Positions 1 to 10,984 of a DNA stretch of 10,984 bases are shown here, in pieces. Source of the stretch: a virus. Lineage: Duplodnaviria; Heunggongvirae; Uroviricota; Caudoviricetes. A program made the translations under genes and the position numbers. The stretch covers positions 1-10,984 of IMG/VR virus record IMGVR_UViG_2778261151_000017; one strand, 5' to 3'. The notes under the pieces were generated by a model. It ran no database searches. It worked only from the letters and a program-made list of their open reading frames with translations, and was not told the origin of the DNA. Every line of letters begins with the position of its first letter. Positions within the stretch are counted from its first letter, which is position 1.

Positions 1-648
1 ATGGCAGCGACGCACACACTCCCTCTGGCGTCACCGGGCATGGCACGCATCTGCCTTTACGGGGATTTACAACGATTTGGCCGCCGCATCGACCTTCGAG
101 TGAAAACGGGGTCTGAAGCCATCCGGGCGCTGGCCATGCAGATCCCGGCGTTTCGTCAGAAACTGAGCGACGGCTGGTACCAGGTACGCATTGCCGGGCG
201 TGATGCAGGTGAAACCGAATTGTCTGCCCGTCTTAATGAGCCGCTGGCAAATGGTGCCGTGATCCACATCGTGCCGCGTCTGGCGGGAGCTAAAAGTGGC
301 GGTGTGTTTCAGGTGGTGCTGGGGGCGGCGCTGATTGCGGTGGCATGGTGGAACCCTGTGGGCTGGCTGGGTGCCGCGGCTGTATCGGGCATGTATGCGG
401 CAGGGGCCAGTATGATCCTGGGCGGAGTGGCGCAGATGCTGGCACCGAAAGCCAGGACGCCCACGGCAGCAAGTACAGATAACGGCAAACAGAACACCTA
501 TTTCTCCTCACTGGATAACATGGTTGCCCAGGGCAATGTTCTGCCGGTTCTGTACGGTGAAATGCGCGTGGGGTCACGCGTGGTTTCTCAGGAAATCAGC
601 ACGGCAGACGAAGGGGATGGTGGGCAGGTTGTGGTGATTGGTCGCTGA
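1..648 (+). CDS. I: Tail tip assembly protein I (lambda gpI-like), 215 aa
   Basis: ORF of 215 aa starting with ATG at position 1. The N-terminus (MAATHTLPLASPGMARICLYGDLQRFGRRIDLRVKTG...) and C-terminus (...KQNTYFSSLDNMVAQGNVLPVLYGEMRVGSRVVSQEISTADEGDGGQVVVIGR) match my recollection of lambda gpI; the middle is Gly/Ala-rich and hydrophobic. It lies immediately upstream of J, as in lambda. The identification is from memory. Confidence 0.88.
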   Translation: MAATHTLPLASPGMARICLYGDLQRFGRRIDLRVKTGSEAIRALAMQIPAFRQKLSDGWYQVRIAGRDAGETELSARLNEPLANGAVIHIVPRLAGAKSGGVFQVVLGAALIAVAWWNPVGWLGAAAVSGMYAAGASMILGGVAQMLAPKARTPTAASTDNGKQNTYFSSLDNMVAQGNVLPVLYGEMRVGSRVVSQEISTADEGDGGQVVVIGR

Positions 649-666
649 TGCAAAATGTTTTATGTG

Positions 667-687
667 AAACCGCCTCCGGGCGGTTTT
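667..687 (+). other. GC-rich hairpin in the I-J intergenic spacer (possible attenuator or RNA stability element)
   Basis: aaaccgcc (667-674), loop tccg, ggcggttt (679-686) form an 8-bp stem, followed by a T-rich stretch (tttt a tcg ttt). It sits between the I stop (646-648) and the J ribosome-binding site GGAG (697-700). Confidence 0.3.
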
Positions 688-708
688 ATCGTTTATGGAG
701 CATGACGA

Positions 709-3700
709 ATGGGTAAAGGCAGCAGTAAGGGGCATACCCCGCGCGAAGCGAAGGACAACCTGAAGTCCACGCAGTTGCTGAGTGTGATCGATGCCATCAG
801 CGAAGGGCCGGTTGAAGGTCCGGTGGATGGATTAAAAAGCGTGCTGCTGAACAGTACGCCGGTGCTGGACACTGAGGGGAATACCAACATCTCCGGTGTC
901 ACGGTGGTGTTCCGTGCCGGTGAGCAGGAGCAGACACCGCCGGAGGGGTTTGAATCCTCCGGCTCCGAGACGGTGCTGGGTACGGAAGTGAAATATGACA
1001 CGCCGATCACCCGCACCATTACGTCTGCAAACATCGACCGTCTGCGCTTTACCTTCGGTGTGCAGGCACTGGTGGAAACCACCTCAAAGGGGGACCGGAA
1101 TCCATCGGAAGTCCGCCTGCTGGTTCAGATACAACGTAACGGTGGCTGGGTGACGGAAAAGGACATCACCATTAAGGGCAAAACCACCTCGCAGTATCTG
1201 GCCTCGGTGGTGGTGGATAACCTGCCGCCGCGCCCGTTCAGTATCCGGATGCGCAGAATGACGCCGGACAGCACCACAGACCAGTTGCAGAACAAAACGC
1301 TCTGGTCGTCATACACCGAAATTATCGATGTGAAACAGGGCTACCCGAACACGGCACTGGTCGGCGTACAGGTGGATTCGGAGCAGTTCGGCAGCCAGCA
1401 GGTGAGCCGTAATTATCATCTTCGCGGGCGCATTCTGCAGGTGCCGTCGAACTATAACCCGCAGACGCGACAATACAGCGGTATCTGGGACGGAACGTTA
1501 AAACCAGCATACAGCAACAACATGGCCTGGTGTCTGTGGGATATGCTGACCCACCCGCGCTACGGCATGGGAAAACGTCTTGGTGCGGCGGATGTGGACA
1601 AATGGGCGCTGTATGTCATCGGCCAGTACTGCGACCAGTCAGTGCCGGACGGCTTTGGCGGCACGGAGCCGCGCATCACCTGTAATGCGTACCTGACCAC
1701 ACAGCGCAAGGCGTGGGATGTGCTCAGTGATTTCTGCTCGGCGATGCGCTGTATGCCGGTATGGAACGGGCAGACGCTGACGTTCGTGCAGGACCGACCG
1801 TCGGATAAGGTGTGGGCCTATAACCGCAGTAATGTGGTGATGCCGGATGATGGTGCGCCGTTCCGCTACAGTTTCAGCGCCCTGAAAGACCGCCATAATG
1901 CCGTTGAGGTGAACTGGATTGACCCGGATAACGGCTGGGAGACGGCGACAGAGCTTGTTGAAGATACGCAGGCCATTGCCCGTTACGGTCGTAACGTCAC
2001 GAAGATGGATGCCTTTGGCTGTACCAGCCGGGGGCAGGCGCACCGCGCCGGGCTGTGGCTGATTAAAACGGAACTGCTGGAAACGCAGACCGTGGACTTC
2101 AGCGTGGGTGCGGAAGGGCTTCGCCATGTACCGGGGGATGTCATTGAAATCTGCGATGATGACTATGCGGGTATCAGCACCGGCGGGCGCGTGCTGGCGG
2201 TGAACAGCCAGACCCGGACGCTGACGCTCGACCGTGAAATCACGCTGCCATCCTCCGGTACCACGCTGATAAGCCTGGTTGACGGTCAGGGTAATCCGGT
2301 CAGCGTGGAGGTCCAGTCCGTCACCGACGGCGTGAAGGTGAAAGTGAGCCGTGTTCCTGACGGCGTTGCAGAATACAGCGTGTGGGGGCTGAAGCTGCCG
2401 ACGCTGCGCCAGCGCCTGTTCCGCTGCGTGAGTATCCGTGAGAACGACGACGGCACGTATGCCATCACCGCCGTGCAGCATGTACCGGAAAAAGAGGCCA
2501 TCGTGGATAACGGGGCGCACTTTGACGGCGACCAGAGCGGCACGGTAAATGGTGTCACGCCGCCAGCGGTGCAGCACCTGACTGCCGAAGTCACCGCAGA
2601 CAGCGGGGAATATCAGGTGCTGGCGCGCTGGGACACGCCGAAGGTGGTGAAGGGCGTGAGTTTCCTGCTTCGCCTGACCGTGGCAGCGGATGACGGCAGT
2701 GAGCGGCTGGTCAGCACGGCCCGGACGGCGGAAACCACATACCGCTTCACGCAACTGGCGCTGGGGAACTACAGGCTGACAGTCCGGGCGGTAAATGCGT
2801 GGGGACAGCAGGGCGATCCGGCATCGGTATCGTTCCGGATTGCCGCACCGGCAGCGCCGTCTCGGATTGAGCTGACGCCGGGCTATTTTCAGATAACCGC
2901 CACGCCGCATCTTGCGGTTTATGATCCGACGGTACAGTTTGAGTTCTGGTTCTCGGAAAAGCGGATTGCGGATATCAGGCAGGTTGAAACCACAGCCCGC
3001 TATCTTGGTACGGCGCTGTACTGGATAGCCGCCAGTATCAATATCAAACCGGGCCATGATTATTACTTTTATATCCGCAGTGTGAACACCGTTGGCAAAT
3101 CGGTATTCGTGGAGGCTGTTGGTCAGCCGAGTGATGATGCATCCGGCTATCTGGATTTTTTCAAAGGCGAGATAGGGAAAACCCATCTGGCTCAGGAGCT
3201 GTGGACGCAGATTGATAACGGTCAGCTTGCGCCTGACCTGGCTGAAATCAGGACGTCCATTACGGATGTCAGCAATGAAATCACACAGACCGTCAATAAG
3301 AAACTGGAAGACCAGAGTGCAGCGATCCAGCAGATACAGAAGGTTCAGGTTGATACAAATAATAACCTGAACAGCATGTGGGCAGTGAAGCTGCAGCAGA
3401 TGCAGGACGGACGCCTTTATATTGCGGGTATCGGTGCCGGTATTGAGAACACCCCTGACGGCATGCAGAGTCAGGTGCTGCTGGCGGCGGACAGGATTGC
3501 GATGATTAATCCTGCAAATGGCAACACAAAACCGATGTTTGTTGGTCAGGGTGATCAGATATTCATGAATGACGTGTTCCTGAAACGCCTGACGGCTCCC
3601 ACCATTACCAGCGGTGGAAATCCGCCGGCATTTTCCCTGACACCGGACGGAAAGCTGACCGCTAAAAATGCGGATATCAGTGGCAGTGTGAATGCGAACG

Positions 3701-4206
3701 CCGGGACGCTCAACAATGTCACGGTAAATGAAAACTGTACGATTAAGGGCATGCTGGAGGCGACTCAGGTCAGAGGTGACTTCGTTAAAGCTGTATCCAA
3801 ATCATTCCCGAAACAGGCTGGTACGTGGGGTAATACGGAAACACCAAACGGGACGGTTACAGTCACCATCAGCGATGATCATAACTTTGACCGTCAAATC
3901 ATTATTCCGCCCATTATCTTTAACGGAATAGCGTATAGCGATCCGGGAAGTGGTAATAACCCGGGAGGTACAAGATACACGGGTTATGGTTTTGAAGTTC
4001 GCAAAAACGGCGTATTAATCGCATCCAGAGAAACTAAAGGGGCCATTCCCGGTAGTTACAGTGCAGTTATTGATATGCCGAGTGGCAGGGGAAGCGTCAC
4101 TCTGGAGTTTAAGATTTTCCAGAAAGGCAATCAGGGGGCAGGCAATATCACCGACTGTACGGTGATTGTGACCAAAAAAGCCGCTTCCGGCATCAGTATT
4201 CGTTGA
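709..4206 (+). CDS. J: Tail tip host-specificity protein / central tail fibre J (lambda gpJ-like), 1165 aa
   Basis: ORF of 1165 aa with GGAG 8 nt upstream of the ATG. The N-terminal and central sequence ([34 protein letters not shown]..., [37 protein letters not shown]...) matches my recollection of lambda J. The size is close to lambda J (about 1130 aa) and it follows I. The C-terminal part (after about nt 3200) is the region I am least able to match from memory. Confidence 0.92.
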
Positions 4207-4224
4207 AATATTTATAACCCCAAT

Positions 4225-4252
4225 AAAGGGCGTCAGGAATGACGCCTTTTTT
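4225..4252 (+). terminator. Rho-independent terminator-like hairpin downstream of J
   Basis: Stem ggcgtca (4229-4235), loop ggaa, tgacgcc (4240-4246), extendable by A:U pairs, followed by tttttt (4247-4252). It starts 19 nt after the J stop codon. Confidence 0.6.
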
Positions 4253-4276
4253 ATTGCAGAAAAGCGAGAGGTAATT

Positions 4277-4876
4277 ATGCGTAAAGTTTGTGCAGCAATT
4301 TTGTCCGCAGCCATTTGTCTGGCCGTATCCGGTGCGCCTGCATGGGCGTCTGAACATCAGTCCACGCTGAGCGCGGGGTATCTTCATGCCTCGACGAACG
4401 TCCCCGGCAGTGATGATCTGAACGGGATTAACGTGAAATACCGTTATGAGTTTACGGACACACTGGGGCTGGTGACGTCATTCAGCTATGCAGGAGACAA
4501 GAATCGCCAGCTGACCCGTTACAGCGATACCCGCTGGCATGAAGATTCCGTTCGTAACCGCTGGTTCAGCGTAATGGCGGGGCCGTCTGTGCGCGTGAAT
4601 GAATGGTTCAGCGCGTATGCGATGGCGGGTGTGGCTTACAGCCGTGTGTCGACTTTCTCCGGGGATTATCTTCGCGTAACTGACAACAAGGGGAAAAAGC
4701 ACGATGTGCTGACCGGAAGTGATGACGGTCGCCACAGCAACACGTCTCTGGCGTGGGGGGCTGGCGTGCAGTTTAACCCGACCGAATCCGTGGCCATTGA
4801 TATTGCTTATGAAGGCTCCGGCAGTGGTGACTGGCGCACTGACGGTTTCATCGTGGGTGTCGGTTATAAATTCTGA
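4277..4876 (+). CDS. lom: Lom outer-membrane protein (Ail/Lom family beta-barrel), 199 aa
   Basis: ORF of 199 aa with ribosome-binding site GAGAGG (4266-4271) 5 nt before the ATG. The N-terminus is signal-peptide-like (MRKVCAAILSAAICLAVSGAPAWA) and the protein ends in an aromatic residue (...GVGYKF), typical of outer-membrane beta-barrels. Sequence and position (between J and stf) match lambda lom as I recall it. Confidence 0.9.
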   Translation: MRKVCAAILSAAICLAVSGAPAWASEHQSTLSAGYLHASTNVPGSDDLNGINVKYRYEFTDTLGLVTSFSYAGDKNRQLTRYSDTRWHEDSVRNRWFSVMAGPSVRVNEWFSAYAMAGVAYSRVSTFSGDYLRVTDNKGKKHDVLTGSDDGRHSNTSLAWGAGVQFNPTESVAIDIAYEGSGSGDWRTDGFIVGVGYKF

Positions 4877-4902
4877 TTAGCCAGGTAACACAGTGTTATG
4901 AC

Positions 4903-4929
4903 AGCCCGCCGGTTCAGGCGGGCTTTTTT
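4903..4929 (+). terminator. Rho-independent terminator-like hairpin downstream of lom
   Basis: Stem agcccgcc (4903-4910), loop ggttca, ggcgggct (4917-4924) is a perfect 8-bp GC-rich stem followed by ttttt (4925-4929). It lies 27 nt after the lom stop and just before the stf start. Confidence 0.6.
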
Positions 4930-4940
4930 GTGGGGTGAAT

Positions 4941-7900
4941 ATGGCAGTAAAGATTTCAGGTGTACTGAAAGACGGCACAGGAAAACCGGTACAGAACTGC
5001 ACAATCCAGCTGAAAGCAAAACGTAACAGCACCACGGTGGTGGTGAACACGCTGGCCTCAGAAAATCCGGATGAAGCCGGGCGTTACAGCATGGACGTTG
5101 AGTACGGGCAGTACAGCGTTATTCTGTTGGTGGAAGGCTTCCCGCCGTCACATGCCGGGACCATCGCCGTGTATGAAGATTCCCGACCCGGTACGCTGAA
5201 TGATTTTCTCGGTGCCATGACGGAGGATGATGCCCGTCCTGAGGCACTGCGCCGTTTTGAACTGATGGTGGAAGAGGTGGCGCGTAACGCGTCCGCGGTG
5301 GCACAGAACACGGCAGCCGCGAAGAAGTCAGCCAGCGATGCCGGCACATCAGCCCGTGAGGCGGCAACCCATGCGACTGATGCTGCAGGCTCAGCACGCG
5401 CAGCCAGCACGTCAGCCGGACAGGCCGCTTCGTCGGCTCAGTCAGCGTCTTCCAGCGCAGGAACGGCATCAACAAAGGCCACTGAAGCGGAAAAAAGTGC
5501 TGCCGCTGCAGAGTCCTCAAAAAGCGCGGCGGTCACCAGTGCCGCTGCGGCGAAAACGTCAGAAACGAATGCGGCAGCGTCACAACAATCAGCAGCCACT
5601 TCTGCATCCGCCGCGACCACGAAGGCGTCAGAAGCAGCCACCTCAGCCCGGGATGCGGCGGCCTCAAAAGAGGCAGCGAAATCATCAGAAACGAACGCAT
5701 CATCAAGCGCCAGTAGTGCCGCTTCCTCGGCAACGGCGGCAGGAAATTCCGCGAAGGCGGCAAAAACGTCCGAGACGAACGCCAGGTCTTCTGAAACGGC
5801 AGCGGGACAGAGTGCCTCAGCTGCGGCAGGCTCAAAAACAGCGGCTGCATCATCTGCCAGTGCCGCATCAACAAGTGCCGGGCAGGCCTCAGCCAGTGCC
5901 ACCGCTGCCGGAAAGTCGGCAGAAAGTGCCGCATCGTCTGCTTCAACAGCCACAACGAAGGCTGGCGAAGCCACTGAACAGGCCAGCGCAGCAGCGAGGT
6001 CAGCTTCCGCAGCGAAGACATCCGAAACGAACGCGAAAGCGTCGGAAACCCGTGCAGAATCCTCAAAAACGGCTGCCGCATCGTCAGCCAGTTCGGCGGC
6101 GTCATCGGCATCATCGGCGTCTGCTTCAAAAGATGAGGCGACCATACAGGCGTCAGCAGCGAAGGGCAGCGCCACGACGGCATCCACGAAGGCGACAGAG
6201 GCTGCTGGTAGTGCGACGGCAGCAGCTCAGAGCAAAAGTACGGCGGAATCTGCAGCAACGCGCGCTGAGACAGCGGCAAAACGGGCAGAGGATATTGCAT
6301 CCGCCGTGGCGCTTGAGGATGCGAGCACGACGAAAAAGGGGATAGTACAGCTCAGTAGTGCGACTAACAGCACGTCTGAAACGCTGGCGGCAACGCCAAA
6401 GGCAGTAAAATCAGCCTATGACAATGCAGAGAAACGTCTGCAGAAAGACCAGAACGGCGCTGATATACCCGATAAGGGACGCTTCCTGAACAACATTAAC
6501 GCGGTCAGTAAAACAGACTTTGCTGATAAGCGTGGTATGCGTTATGTGCGGGTTAACGCTCCTGCAGGTGCAACATCTGGAAAATATTACCCTGTTGTTG
6601 TTATGCGTTCTGCTGGCTCAGTAAGCGAACTGGCATCAAGGGTCATTATCACCACGGCAACGCGAACCGCAGGCGATCCGATGAATAACTGCGAGTTTAA
6701 CGGATTTGTTATGCCTGGTGGCTGGACTGACAGGGGGCGTTATGCTTATGGAATGTTCTGGCAATATCAAAACAATGAACGAGCCATCCACTCAATAATG
6801 ATGAGTAATAAGGGCGATGATTTGCGCTCTGTGTTCTATGTTGATGGCGCTGCTTTCCCTGTTTTTGCGTTTATCGAAGATGGCCTGTCAATATCCGCAC
6901 CTGGTGCTGATCTCGTTGTTAATGATACGACCTATAAGTTTGGGGCAACAAATCCGGCGACTGAATGTATCGCGGCGGACGTTATCCTTGATTTTAAGAG
7001 TGGGCGTGGTTTTTATGAGTCTCATTCGTTAATCGTTAACGATAACTTGTCGTGCAAAAAACTTTTTGCCACAGACGAAATTGTAGCGCGTGGTGGTAAT
7101 CAGATTCGAATGATAGGTGGGGAGTATGGGGCATTATGGCGTAATGATGGCGCTAAAACTTACCTGCTGCTTACCAATCAAGGTGATGTTTATGGTGGCT
7201 GGAATACATTAAGACCGTTTGCTATTGATAACGCAACCGGCGAACTGGTTATTGGAACCAAACTGTCCGCAAGTCTGAACGGTAATGCATTAACAGCAAC
7301 AAAGCTGCAAACGCCAAGACGGGTTTCTGGTGTTGAGTTTGATGGTTCCAAAGATATTACTTTAACCGCCGCGCATGTGGCTGCTTTTGCCAGAAGGGCA
7401 ACGGATACATATGCCGATGCGGATGGTGGCGTTCCCTGGAATGCCGAATCAGGCGCTTATAATGTCACCCGCTCTGGCGACAGCTATATTCTGGTTAACT
7501 TCTATACCGGAGTCGGAAGTTGCCGGACCTTGCAGATGAAGGCGCATTACAGAAATGGTGGTCTGTTCTACCGTTCTTCAAGAGACGGTTATGGTTTTGA
7601 GGAAGACTGGGCAGAAGTTTATACCTCGAAAAATCTTCCACCAGAAAGCTACCCAGTCGGCGCACCAATCCCGTGGCCATCAGATACCGTTCCGTCTGGT
7701 TATGCCCTGATGCAGGGGCAGACTTTTGACAAATCTGCCTACCCGAAACTTGCAGCCGCTTATCCGTCAGGCGTGATCCCTGATATGCGTGGCTGGACGA
7801 TTAAGGGCAAGCCCGCCAGTGGTCGTGCCGTATTGTCTCAGGAACAGGACGGCATAAAATCGCATACCCACAGCGCCAGCGCATCCAGTACTGATTTGGG

Positions 7901-8342
7901 GACGAAAACCACATCGTCGTTTGATTACGGCACTAAATCCACGAATAACACTGGTGCGCATACCCATAGTATTAGCGGGACCGCAAATAGTGCCGGCGCG
8001 CACCAACACAAGAGTTCCGGTGCATTTGGTGGCACGAACACGAGCATTTTCCCTAATGGTTATACCGCGATTTCAAATCCAAGCGCGGGGATTATGAGCA
8101 CAACAAGCGGTAGTGGCCAGACTCGTAATGCAGGGAAGACATCATCAGATGGTGCTCATACCCACTCGCTGTCCGGCACTGCTGCAAGCGCAGGCGCACA
8201 TGCACATACTGTCGGTATTGGTGCTCATACGCACTCCGTTGCGATTGGCTCACATGGACACACCATCACCGTTAACGCTGCGGGTAACGCGGAAAACACC
8301 GTCAAAAACATCGCATTTAACTATATTGTGAGGCTTGCATAA
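4941..8342 (+). CDS. stf: Side tail fibre protein Stf (lambda Stf-like), intact, about 1133 aa
   Basis: One continuous ORF. The N-terminus [26 protein letters not shown] and the C-terminus ...[11 protein letters not shown] match lambda Stf as I recall it. It contains a long Ala/Ser/Thr-rich segment with repeated K(T/S)SETNA motifs, the tail-fibre motif [43 protein letters not shown], and C-terminal His-x-His repeats (GAHTHS, GAHAHT, GSHGHT). I place the start at ATG 4941; the ORF track starts at an in-frame GTG at 4935, which is less likely. Confidence 0.88.
5283..6336 (+). repeat. Low-complexity Ala/Ser/Thr-rich coding repeat region inside stf
   Basis: About 350 codons are dominated by GCN, TCN and ACN codons. 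At least four imperfect copies of a roughly 24-nt unit encoding AAK(T/S)SETNA occur near 5553-5575, 5677-5699, 5763-5785 and 6013-6035. This region generates long spurious ORFs in the other frames. Confidence 0.65.
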
Positions 8343-8926
8343 TGGCATTCAGAATGAGTGAACAAGCACGGACTATAAAAATTTATAATCTGCTGGCCGG
8401 AACTAATGAATTTATTGGTGAAGGTGACGCATATATTCCGCCTCATACAGGTCTGCCAGCAAACAGTACCGATATTGCACCACCAGATATTCCGGCAGGC
8501 TTCGTGGCTGTTTTCAACAGTGATGAGGCATCGTGGCATCTCGTTGAAGACCATCGGGGTAAAACGGTTTATGACGTGGCTTCCGGCGACGCGTTATTTA
8601 TTTCTGAACTTGGCTCGTTACCGGAAAATGTCACCTGGTTATCGCCGGAAGGGGAATATCAGAAGTGGAACGGCACAGCCTGGGTGAAGGATCCGGAAGC
8701 AGAAAAACTGTTCCGGATCCGGGAGGCGGAAGAAACAAAAAACAGCCTGATGCAGGTAGCCAGTGAGCATATAGCGCCACTTCAGGATGCTGTAGATCTG
8801 GAGATCGCAACGGAGGAAGAAACCTCATTGCTGGAAGCCTGGAAAAAATATCGGGTGTTGCTGAACCGTGTTAATACAACAACTGCACCTGATATTGAGT
8901 GGCCGGAAGAACCAGACACAATGTAA
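8342..8926 (+). CDS. tfa: Tail fibre assembly protein / chaperone Tfa (lambda Tfa-like), 194 aa
   Basis: ORF of 194 aa beginning [44 protein letters not shown]..., matching my recollection of lambda Tfa. Its ATG overlaps the stf stop by 1 nt (TAATG at 8340-8344), and GAGG (8330-8333) lies 8 nt upstream. Confidence 0.9.
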
Positions 8927-8940
8927 GCGAAAAAGAAAAA

Positions 8941-8973
8941 CCGCAGACACGACGTATGCAGGACGTGCTGCGG
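8941..8973. terminator. Candidate bidirectional terminator hairpin between convergent tfa (+) and the 252-aa gene (-)
   Basis: ccgcag(a)cacg (8941-8951), loop of about 12 nt, cgtgctgcgg (8964-8973) form a roughly 10-bp stem with one bulge. It is followed by ttt on the + strand and preceded by aaaagaaaaa (8931-8940), which reads TTTTTCTTTT on the - strand, so the - strand direction looks the more canonical. Confidence 0.4.
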
Positions 8974-9092
8974 TTTGGCTAGTAAACTTTTGATAGTGCG
9001 AGTATTGAATGATTTCCAGCCCATTACTCATTTTACGCTTTTCACGCGCAAGAGAAATTGAACTTTATTCCTCTGTCACCACATGACGGGGA

Positions 9093-9851
9093 TTAACATT
9101 CTGGATTTTTTATTTCTAAATCAGATAAAGCATTAATTCTTATTTTTTCTAAGGCTTTATCCATGGCCCCCTTGATTCTGTATCCATAATCATCCGGTTC
9201 TTCATATTCCTGTGGGGACGGATTTGTACCAATATTCTCAATTAATTCATTTAAAATAACTGTTACTTCTTTATTAAGAAGAACTGCTTTAGTTAACATC
9301 ATCTCTGTTAATGCTGTGAAGGCTAGGCTAAGTTTCTGTTGTAGCTCTTTATTTTTTAATTTAAGATCTTCATCGTTTAGTGCTTTATCACGGTCTTCGT
9401 GAGCCTGTTGTACTTCATCCCAAAACAGCTTTTCTTGTTCTTGATTAAAATATCCTTGATAACTATTGGCTACATATGTTGGCATCATGTGAATCTCAAT
9501 AATTTCAAATTCATTATCAGCCCATTTTTTTATACTAAGTAACTGAGTGTAAATGTACTCATACATATCGTACTTTTTTTGCCAGATTTGTTGAGAAATC
9601 CACAACTCAGAAGTAATCTTTTTTTCTATATCTTTGATAGTTGTTGTATTTAATGCTAACTGCTTTCTGAGTATTTCATAGTTAGCGTTGGTAGCAGAAA
9701 TTTTTGCTTTTTCAGTTATAAAAGAAACAATAAAGTTCACTATGAGAGCTGCAATAATAATAGCGAAGCTCAACCCTAAAATCTCTGTGGTTGAGAAATT
9801 AGATGACTGTAATGCTTTGATAAGTTCAAAAAACTGTTTTTCTGTGAGCAT
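9093..9851 (-). CDS. Hypothetical single-pass membrane protein, 252 aa, function unknown (accessory / candidate defence gene)
   Basis: An uninterrupted 252-codon ORF in DNA of about 22-40% GC, where stop codons are frequent by chance, so it is very likely real. A possible ribosome-binding site AAGG lies 4 nt before the ATG (9849-9851) on the - strand. It has one hydrophobic helix near the N-terminus (ILGLSFAIIIAALIVNFIVSFI, about residues 24-45), then a K/E/Q-rich, Trp/Tyr-containing region with coiled-coil character and an acidic C-terminal end. I see no Walker A, HEXXH, HNH or other catalytic motif. Confidence 0.78.
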   Translation of the reverse strand: MLTEKQFFELIKALQSSNFSTTEILGLSFAIIIAALIVNFIVSFITEKAKISATNANYEILRKQLALNTTTIKDIEKKITSELWISQQIWQKKYDMYEYIYTQLLSIKKWADNEFEIIEIHMMPTYVANSYQGYFNQEQEKLFWDEVQQAHEDRDKALNDEDLKLKNKELQQKLSLAFTALTEMMLTKAVLLNKEVTVILNELIENIGTNPSPQEYEEPDDYGYRIKGAMDKALEKIRINALSDLEIKNPEC

Positions 9852-9922
9852 GGTACCTTACCAAAAATTAAGACTGTTATCTATATAAAAATGTTACCCA
9901 AGAGGGATTGTAATGAAATAAC

Positions 9923-9944
9923 AAACCGGCACATTGGCCGGTTT
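9923..9944 (-). other. Intergenic hairpin between the two - strand genes (possible partial terminator, attenuator or processing site)
   Basis: aaaccggc (9923-9930), loop acattg, gccggttt (9937-9944) form an 8-bp stem. On the - strand it is followed by GTTATTTCATTA, which is T-rich but interrupted. I found no convincing sigma70 -35/-10 pair in the 97-nt spacer (9852-9948). Confidence 0.3.
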
Positions 9945-9949
9945 GAAGT

Positions 9950-10984
9950 TCAAGGGGGTGAGATTGTAGAGGCGTTACCTTGTTCTATCACACCAGACCT
10001 AATCTTATAACTACCAAGGATGTTGACCGTTTTATTATTTTTCATCGCGTCAAAAATTAAGCCTATTTCATCAGGATCATTGATAAAACTGGTATCAACA
10101 TAGATCGGGAATGAATCATCACCTGTTGGCTCATGGCAGCTTAACGTTAGCTTATCGGCTGAGCGTTTTATACTATCAATGACAACTTCCAATGTTTGCT
10201 GCTCTGACTTAGCCTTTTCAATTGGGTTCTTGATGATTTCTTGAACCTGACCTTGCGAAAGCTCAATATTGCTGGCCCCGCGGATCGTCACTTTGTCTGC
10301 ATCAGATGCACCTTTAAGAACTCCAGTGTATGCCTTAGCTGTGTGCTCTTGGATACCTTCGGCGCGCTCTATCGTATCAATACCTTCATGTGCTTTTATT
10401 GCAGACAGCATACCATCGCGTAGAATTGTCATCCGCTCGGATTCTGCTCGCTGTTTTGCTTCTTCCAGTTGTAACTCAATAGTTTTGGTTTCGACTTGTG
10501 TCTGATGATCTAAGTAGGACGTACCGACCCATGCGCCGCCTAAAACTAAGACAGCAAACAGGAAACACATTGTTTTCTGTCTTGGGCTCATACCTTGCGT
10601 TACCTTCTCAAATGCGTTACCAAAGGAATCAATAAGTTCTTTAACTGAGGTGATAATTTCTGTGCAGCCAGGATTGATAGTAAAAACCAACTCTGCAGCT
10701 TCTCGATCCTCAGCAGTGAGCTTCTGTAAGTTAGAGGTTTTGTACTTGATTAGAGTAAAAACCTTGTACATCTCAGTTTGAAATTCACAGATACCCTGTG
10801 CCAAACTTGCAGGCAGAGTACCATTATACTTATCTTCATCACCAAAAAATTTGAAATCAATACTTTCTAAGAAGTTTAACTTCAAATTTTCAATGTGGAT
10901 TTCTTCGCCTGAAATAACTCGTCCGAAAATATTTTCTATATCATCAATATCATTGATTTCATAGGCCTGAATTGCATCTTCCAT
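9950..10984 (-). CDS. Hypothetical membrane-anchored protein, 344 aa, function unknown (accessory / candidate defence gene)
   Basis: A 344-codon ORF on the - strand whose ATG is the last three bases of the window (10982-10984), so its promoter and ribosome-binding site are not visible. It has a highly acidic N-terminal region (MEDAIQAYEINDIDDIENIF...), one central hydrophobic helix (MCFLFAVLVLGGAWVGTSYL, about residues 138-157) preceded by basic residues (SPRQKT), then a charged segment with coiled-coil character (IELQLEEAKQRAESERMTILRDG...) and a C-terminal region (...GDDSFPIYVDTSFINDPDEIGLIFDAMKNNKTVNILGSYKIRSG...). I recognise no catalytic motif. Confidence 0.75.
   Translation of the reverse strand: MEDAIQAYEINDIDDIENIFGRVISGEEIHIENLKLNFLESIDFKFFGDEDKYNGTLPASLAQGICEFQTEMYKVFTLIKYKTSNLQKLTAEDREAAELVFTINPGCTEIITSVKELIDSFGNAFEKVTQGMSPRQKTMCFLFAVLVLGGAWVGTSYLDHQTQVETKTIELQLEEAKQRAESERMTILRDGMLSAIKAHEGIDTIERAEGIQEHTAKAYTGVLKGASDADKVTIRGASNIELSQGQVQEIIKNPIEKAKSEQQTLEVVIDSIKRSADKLTLSCHEPTGDDSFPIYVDTSFINDPDEIGLIFDAMKNNKTVNILGSYKIRSGVIEQGNASTISPP

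Follow-up and report, generated by a model that had tools for sequence, protein, structure and literature searches.

A344 is a 344-amino-acid (aa) protein encoded at one end of a 10,984-nucleotide stretch of Caudoviricetes virus DNA (IMG/VR record IMGVR_UViG_2778261151_000017, positions 1 to 10,984), which is the whole of the DNA analyzed here and is called the window below. Its gene is a conserved, stand-alone, and horizontally mobile cargo gene, and the encoded protein belongs to phrog_6191, a PHROGs family of unknown function whose members recur directly behind the repressor gene of diverse prophages, in the slot where phage lambda holds rexA-rexB. Sequence features favor an inner-membrane protein with a cytoplasmic N terminus and a periplasmic C terminus (N-in/C-out). 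We propose that A344 is a lysogen-expressed membrane protein that excludes other phages at the membrane, a reading to which we assign a probability of roughly 0.4, and we consider it a good candidate for a new one-protein anti-phage defense. The parts of this proposal differ in strength. An anti-phage or exclusion role of some kind, for which gene position is the argument, has somewhat better than even odds, and action at the membrane is about an even bet. A block to genome entry specifically, for which the argument is architectural, is unlikely. The parts of the A344 gene are as follows.

9950-10984, minus strand: A344, 344 aa, complete coding sequence (open reading frame [ORF] call, RefSeq).
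10586-10984, minus strand: acidic alpha/beta N-domain, residues 1-133, predicted to be cytoplasmic (structure model, charge).
10511-10573, minus strand: predicted transmembrane (TM) helix, residues 138-158, TMCFLFAVLVLGGAWVGTSYL, bounded by K137 and D159 (hydropathy, conserved position).
10310-10510, minus strand: juxtamembrane linker (residues 159-168) and charged helical hairpin (residues 169-199 and 202-225), predicted to be periplasmic (structure model).
10211-10309, minus strand: small beta-hairpin and helix, residues 226-258, joining the helical hairpin to the C-terminal domain (structure model, alignment).
9953-10210, minus strand: C-terminal oligonucleotide/oligosaccharide-binding (OB) fold, residues 259-344, predicted to be periplasmic (structure model).

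The original prediction, made from the letters of the window, held that the protein has a single central hydrophobic helix that places its C-terminal region in the periplasm, where it might interfere with phage DNA entry or sense envelope events. Hydropathy analysis bears out the helix. Residues 138-158 reach a Kyte-Doolittle mean over 19 residues (KD19) of 1.82, compared with 1.01 for the next-best window of A344, and have an Eisenberg mean hydrophobicity of 0.68 with a hydrophobic moment of 0.05, indicating that the helix is hydrophobic on every face rather than amphipathic. Among 178 full-length relatives, an uncharged stretch occurs at the same place (median length 21 aa, median KD19 1.72, median start at residue 133), and its KD19 value reaches 3.1. 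Because this position is kept even though the columns are only ~18% identical across relatives, the stretch seems to be conserved for its physical character and not for its sequence, and its recurrence exceeds chance. No signal-peptide-like N terminus is present in any of the 178 relatives. By these sequence features the protein is bitopic, with one bilayer-length hydrophobic helix, no other TM segment, and no signal peptide.

N-in/C-out is the better-supported orientation for this helix. An N-terminal domain of 130 residues that lacks a signal peptide is expected to remain cytoplasmic, and the charges that flank the hydrophobic stretch in the 178 relatives point the same way. The net charge of the N-side flank exceeds that of the C-side flank by 1.7 (132 members positive versus 29 negative, a significant bias), and a lysine or arginine bounds the stretch on its N side in 159 members (89%). 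The charge asymmetry first noticed in A344 itself, which has three lysine or arginine residues before the helix and one after it, is thus retained in the family as a bias of net charge but not as a bias in the count of lysine plus arginine.

A structure model was produced with AlphaFold2 from a 22-sequence alignment (mean predicted local distance difference test [pLDDT] 80.5, predicted template modeling score [pTM] 0.68). It contains an alpha/beta N-domain with pLDDT ~90, a helix spanning residues 134-161, a disordered region at residues 157-170 (pLDDT <50), and a C-terminal barrel. The acidic character assigned to the N-terminal region is borne out (residues 1-133 have a net charge of −14 and an isoelectric point of 4.3), and the protein as a whole carries a net charge of −22. 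The separate C-terminal domain is likewise recovered, with residues ~259-342 modeled as an OB-fold, a five-stranded barrel of order b1-b3, helix, b4-b5, in which the helix lies between strands 3 and 4. In this respect the last 85 residues resemble RPA32, STN1, SSB, PriB, CcmE, and the B subunits of AB5 toxins, of which CcmE is an example of a membrane-anchored periplasmic OB-fold. The OB domain has a net charge of −5 and one invariant cysteine (C283), and a conserved SDADK motif lies within the preceding segment (residues 226-258). The coiled coil that had been proposed to follow the membrane helix did not hold up: a heptad a/d test gave values no better than those of shuffled sequences (p 0.24-0.95), and the model instead contains helices 169-199 and 202-225, which are better described as an antiparallel hairpin.

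Structural comparisons provided few leads. A profile search of PDB sequences returned only weak hits (E 0.005-0.03) to ATP synthase b and MotB, both of them TM-plus-stalk proteins, and we judged these hits to be compositional. A Foldseek search of BFVD with the model gave two significant near-full-length matches, both to uncharacterized phage proteins (from Leptospira phage LE1 and a Myoviridae contig). No known relative of the N-domain fold was detected, and this domain is neither a DNA-binding nor a known anti-sigma fold.

Assignment to phrog_6191 is secure: A344 matches the family hidden Markov model over its full length at E 2.2e-92, with residues 4-342 aligned to positions 4-332 of the 338-position profile. 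Scans against Pfam, NCBIfam, and PADLOC yielded nothing above noise for A344; PADLOC-DB v2, which includes PD-lambda-1/SNIPE, gave E values of at least 0.019. When 67 diverse relatives were scanned, all 67 matched phrog_6191 and none of the Pfam or PADLOC matches was consistent, the PADLOC hits being single weak matches to PDC-M32A (5e-4), Cmr5, and BrxB in one member each. A word-indexed search found relatives only in Enterobacterales (at least 44% identity), and a close-alignment search of species-representative genomes found only four genomes. When 1.84 billion cluster representatives were searched by profile, 780 clusters (50% identity) were recovered at E ≤1e-3, nearly all of them full length at 310-380 aa. 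The family is mostly metagenomic and takes in a Leptospira phage and a Pasteurella phage.

Sequence conservation across the family is sparse. Conservation over the 67 diverse members reaches 90% or more in only four columns (G48, L89, G106, and M132), and nothing therefore points to a catalytic site; the lack of such a signature would fit a binding or structural mode of action. Close relatives of A344 share further conserved positions, comprising Y53/G55, F68-Q69-E71, D228-A229-D230, K273-R274, C283, and R329 in addition to G48. Pairwise identity over the wide family is highest in the N-domain (27%), followed by the OB domain (19%) and the hairpin (14%). Several homologues in GenBank (PV340541 and PV340549-54, from mEp332 and PhiR12_1 to PhiR12_5) are labeled 'T2SS GspM containing protein', after the type II secretion system component. 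Neither A344 (E up to 1) nor the 67 relatives (E up to 0.01) match T2SSM, and the label, which is likely misleading, probably reflects nothing beyond a shared bitopic layout.

The evidence that most strongly suggests an anti-phage function is genomic context. ORFs were called and clustered around 63 homologue loci, and recurrent neighbors were annotated with Pfam. Of the 43 IMG/VR prophage loci, 25 have the homologue as the first gene 3′ of a CI-type repressor (HTH_3 plus Peptidase_S24) on the same strand, separated from it by −4 to 219 bp. The next ORF downstream in 11 of the 25 encodes an N antiterminator (PF25694), again on the same strand and after a gap of ~380-720 bp. The genes for Cro, CII, YdaT, and replication protein O are divergent and lie on the far side of cI. 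The CI proteins encoded ahead of the homologues fall into at least two unrelated clusters, and the association with cI is therefore not one inherited arrangement.

Cultured phages have the same organization. The immunity-region record for mEp332 gives the order pRM-cI-mEp33204-Timm-like terminator-oL/pL-N, where mEp33204 is annotated as a conserved hypothetical protein similar to UTI89_C5141, which by position and annotation is the UTI89 copy of A344. In PhiR12_1 to PhiR12_5, the homologue lies between cI and N, and the divergent homologue of phi458 (27% identity) likewise follows a CI gene. The cI-N interval has been described as a mosaic hotspot that includes rexAB and bstA and is presumably transcribed from the repressor promoter (Owen et al. 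2021, PMC8585504). Exclusion genes in this hotspot, and in cargo distal to tail-fiber genes, are a well-known kind. Homologues also occupy other cargo settings, being found beside Abi_2 in Proteus islands, beside a tail-fiber invertase at the end of a Mu-like prophage in Yersinia ruckeri, next to an integrase, and behind a P2-type CI-like helix-turn-helix gene.

These data lead us to the following proposal. A344 would be a 'moron', that is, a gene for a bitopic inner-membrane protein carried as prophage cargo, and its product would consist of an acidic cytoplasmic N-domain, one TM helix, and a periplasmic module formed by the helical hairpin and the OB-fold. The prophage would make the protein during lysogeny, as the position of the gene leads us to infer, and the lysogen, and hence the prophage, would be protected from superinfecting phages. 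The hairpin and OB module may engage the entry apparatus of the incoming phage, either its tape-measure and ejection proteins or its inner-membrane channel. A signal or a block would then pass via the TM helix and the conserved cytoplasmic domain, so that the incoming genome would either not enter or fail at the earliest steps afterward. We also entertain, tentatively and at odds well short of even, a broader version in which phrog_6191 is a large unrecognized family of single-protein TM anti-phage sensors or effectors in the rexAB slot, whose periplasmic OB module detects entry or an envelope breach and is coupled to a cytoplasmic domain of new fold. If true, this would constitute a new way to read infection across the inner membrane with one polypeptide.

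Precedents exist for parts of this arrangement; the architecture of phrog_6191 is unlike that of characterized exclusion proteins. SieA, SieB, and HK97 gp15 are inner-membrane proteins made by prophages in lysogens that stop superinfection at or just after DNA entry, as proposed for A344. However, SieA and SieB are smaller (164 and 192 aa) and have neither a conserved 130-residue cytoplasmic domain nor an OB-fold. SNIPE (PD-lambda-1), a membrane-bound nuclease that cuts phage DNA during injection, provides a precedent for a single-pass inner-membrane defense at the site of genome entry (PMC13190303). SNIPE, however, has its N terminus outside and carries DUF4041 and GIY-YIG domains in the cytoplasm; both domains are missing from A344, which also lacks a nuclease motif and has the opposite predicted orientation. 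BstA of Salmonella phage BTP1 is, like the homologues of A344, encoded by a single gene 3′ of the repressor in prophages of diverse Gram-negative bacteria, and it localizes to sites of phage DNA replication (Owen et al., PMC8585504). By description, A344 is set apart from BstA by its predicted TM helix and the lack of a PADLOC match.

Rex is the system closest in position. Relatives of A344 occupy the same slot 3′ of cI on the same strand before oL/pL and N, both systems are prophage-borne, and both RexB and, by prediction, A344 are membrane components. The two differ in that Rex combines a soluble sensor with a four-TM protein, whereas A344 would be one polypeptide with one TM helix and a sizeable predicted periplasmic domain. 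Homology to known exclusion proteins was rejected when a profile built from the 67 sequences was compared by using hhalign, with probabilities of 0.6% for RexA (279 aa), 0.15% for RexB (144 aa, four TM), 0.1% for P22 SieA, and 2.5% for P22 SieB, the last match covering the TM start alone.

Several observations weigh against exclusion at the membrane by A344. The argument from the rex slot is one of guilt by association, and the copy in the window is not behind cI at all, lying instead in low-G+C cargo after the tail-fiber genes and thus outside a cI operon. A simple scan of the 450 bp located 5′ of the gene in Escherichia coli 1303 revealed no consensus sigma-70 promoter. The known injection blockers SieA, Imm, HK97 gp15, and Sie2009 are small proteins that are not known to carry a conserved cytoplasmic domain of 130 residues, and for this reason a pure entry blocker is not an obvious fit. 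With regard to topology, the count of lysine plus arginine taken alone has no significant bias among the 178 relatives (79 versus 48, p = 0.2). Moreover, the N-domain loses confidence when modeled alone (pLDDT falls from ~90 to 71), and this drop, together with the pTM of 0.68, could mean that the N- and C-terminal parts pack against each other, an arrangement incompatible with a membrane between them. The acidity of the OB domain also counts against the proposal, and our literature search found no functional study of any phrog_6191 member. Nevertheless, the anti-phage part of the original prediction has gained strong circumstantial support from the rexAB/bstA slot and the Abi_2 neighbor; that support does not single out the DNA-entry step over abortive infection or another envelope function.

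The main rival, which we judge rather improbable, is that A344 is an abortive-infection effector, either a one-polypeptide analogue of RexA plus RexB or a holin-like killer. Here the N-domain or the OB module would sense a phage cue, TM helices containing glycine would oligomerize, and the membrane potential would collapse so that the cell dies before progeny are made. The slot shared with rexAB and bstA speaks for this alternative, both of these being abortive systems, as does Abi_2 in Proteus, and a large conserved cytoplasmic domain arguably makes better sense in a sensor than in a passive blocker. Close relatives have an invariant glycine (G150) and a GGxxxG-like motif within the TM helix, and class III holins such as T4 T are bitopic N-in/C-out proteins with a globular periplasmic domain. 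However, one modestly hydrophobic TM helix is a weak pore former, the sequence and profile comparisons disclose no similarity to RexA, RexB, or SieB, and no self-immunity element is evident even though the carriers differ widely (lambdoid prophage, Mu-like prophage, and island).

Somewhat less probable again is that A344 serves lysogenic conversion or regulation and is not aimed at phages. It might be a transducer of the ToxR, RodZ, or anti-sigma kind with effects on envelope physiology, host fitness, or virulence, or it might adjust induction or lysis of the prophage that carries it. A cytoplasmic domain, one TM helix, and a periplasmic domain is the layout of anti-sigma and ToxR-like transducers, and the absence of a match to any PADLOC defense model is also in keeping with this idea. 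On two IMG/VR prophage contigs, copies 91-95% identical to A344 are surrounded by cargo genes for NleG and a SopA-like pentapeptide-repeat E3 ligase, and thus one cargo slot mixes type III secretion effectors with A344. In addition, UTI89_C5141 was 1.65-fold enriched in a differential fluorescence induction (DFI-seq) promoter screen of UTI89 grown in bladder cells (PMC5404293), which is the only mention of this locus found in the literature. That enrichment is small, however, and was shared by neighboring chromosomal genes. The acidic N-domain has neither a DNA-binding nor a known anti-sigma fold, the wide and mostly metagenomic distribution that includes Leptospira and Pasteurella phages argues against host-specific virulence, and the recurrent position between cI and N over different immunity types points to a general benefit to the prophage.

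It is very unlikely that A344 is not a membrane protein, with the hydrophobic helix buried in a soluble cytoplasmic OB-fold protein such as a nucleic-acid or protein binder. A stretch of 21 uncharged residues that is not amphipathic and is kept in place over the 178 relatives argues otherwise, as do the modeled disorder immediately after the helix and the nature of the weak profile matches, which are to TM-plus-stalk proteins. A protein that is strongly acidic throughout, including its OB domain, is also unsuited to nucleic-acid binding.

Exclusion at the membrane by A344, our preferred reading, would be of interest because the cI-N region is the classical home of prophage exclusion genes. The mechanism of rexAB is not settled after more than 60 years of study. 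A large unannotated family that repeatedly replaces rexAB with a single gene, and whose product has a two-sided membrane architecture, offers a tractable candidate that may shed light on how superinfection is sensed or blocked at the membrane of a lysogen. The proposal is easily tested, since mEp332 and the PhiR12 phages are cultured and carry the homologue behind cI. A positive outcome would add a family to defense-finder databases, and PADLOC-DB v2 currently misses phrog_6191. Even if it is not anti-phage, A344 would still represent a widespread envelope protein whose position points to expression in lysogens.

The boundaries of the A344 gene are well supported. It lies on the minus strand, with the stop codon at 9950-9952 and the ATG formed by the final three bases of the window. 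In both E. coli 1303 and UTI89, RefSeq assigns the identical start and stop, homologues begin within a few residues of the same ATG, and the identical locus in E. coli 1303 has an AAGGA Shine-Dalgarno sequence 6 nt 5′ of it, just beyond the window; these three observations together support the start. Further upstream in E. coli 1303, a 450-bp AT-rich spacer (locus 14085-14533) reaches to a DinI-like gene. A second, internal start is conceivable at M132 (codon 10589-10591), which lies within the motif G-M-S/T-x-x-Q-K just ahead of the TM helix and would give an isoform with only the TM helix and C-terminal domain, as in P22 sieB/esc. Three short family members in the databases start exactly at this methionine. 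The Shine-Dalgarno-like motifs upstream of M132 are, by inspection, poorly spaced (11 nt or 1 nt). Note that we dropped such short members as evidence for topology, because two were traced to contigs on which they are pseudogene remnants with N-domain fragments upstream.

The window as a whole corresponds to the right arm of a lambdoid prophage, and its other features are as follows.

1-648, plus strand: tail assembly gene (ORF call).
709-4206, plus strand: gpJ (ORF call).
4277-4876, plus strand: lom (ORF call).
4935-8342, plus strand: side tail fiber gene (ORF call).
8342-8926, plus strand: tail-fiber assembly gene, tfa (ORF call).
8927-9037, plus strand: conserved noncoding segment directly 3′ of tfa, at the left edge of the cargo slot (cross-phage identity).
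9093-9851, minus strand: B252, 252 aa (ORF call).
9922-9945, minus strand: terminator-like G+C-rich hairpin between A344 and B252 (sequence, mapping from E. coli 1303).

The G+C content is 54-56% in the tail genes but only 31.5% in B252 and 40.4% in A344, and the ~110 bp directly after tfa (8927-9037) is the only portion of positions 8900-10984 common to other lambdoid phages. Therefore, we regard A344 and B252 as foreign cargo in a slot after the tail-fiber genes. The common segment is 82-92% identical in HK97, mEp460, HK106, cdtI, 2H10, and many Shiga toxin phages, and it looks like a recombination linker at the edge of the slot. It probably also accounts for most of the matches to query 8900-10984 that were obtained in 2920 of 5426 complete E. 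coli genomes. A344 itself was detectable in only 33 of these genomes, always as a single chromosomal copy, and is a rare accessory gene in E. coli. E. coli 1303 and UTI89 have both A344 and B252, listed there as hypothetical proteins, and in these genomes the gene pair lies between a tail-fiber assembly remnant and the DinI-like gene, at the prophage end beside prfC.

We also observed that, in several E. coli genomes (e.g. NZ_CM192138.1, 2819068-2821596), the 2085-bp interval 8900-10984 aligns as two pieces spread over ~2527 bp, corresponding to an insertion of ~440 bp somewhere within the interval. The A344 gene of Ec-U11, one of the genomes with this insertion, is 100% identical to the copy in the window.

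B252 is an independent cargo gene and not a partner of A344. It has an N-terminal TM segment at about residues 24-46 followed by a helical C-terminal part, and it received no Pfam, PADLOC, or PHROG assignment. By tblastn over 66 loci, B252 is beside A344 only where the copies of A344 are at least 98% identical, and it is absent from every locus with a copy of 95% identity or less (>40 loci), including every cI-slot locus. Its homologues occur without A344 in Enterobacterales and Aeromonas. In Aeromonas one lies alone between formate-dehydrogenase-related genes, and in Klebsiella one is found in prophage-end cargo beside SRAP, a SNIPE-family (PF13250) gene, and umuDC-like genes. The two genes are also separated by the hairpin (CAAACCGGCCAATGTGCCGGTTTG followed by TTATTTCATT), which leads into a T-rich tail, starts 5 nt past the A344 stop, and suggests two separate transcription units; it was found at 13045-13022 of the identical E. 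coli 1303 locus and maps to window positions 9945-9922. Thus, a two-gene membrane system in which A344 and B252 act together is the least credible alternative of all: the two genes are same-strand neighbors 98 bp apart, each product has one predicted TM segment, and the stretch 8900-10984 that holds both is at least 80% present in 28 E. coli genomes, but the loci without B252, its solitary homologues, the hairpin, and the difference in G+C content all argue against a joint function.

B252 may be a second uncharacterized defense or exclusion candidate in its own right. Elsewhere in the window, positions 5250-6350 of the side tail fiber gene (roughly residues 110-470) encode a long low-complexity region rich in alanine, serine, and threonine, which gives rise to spurious ORFs as long as 335, 255, and 249 aa in other reading frames of both strands.

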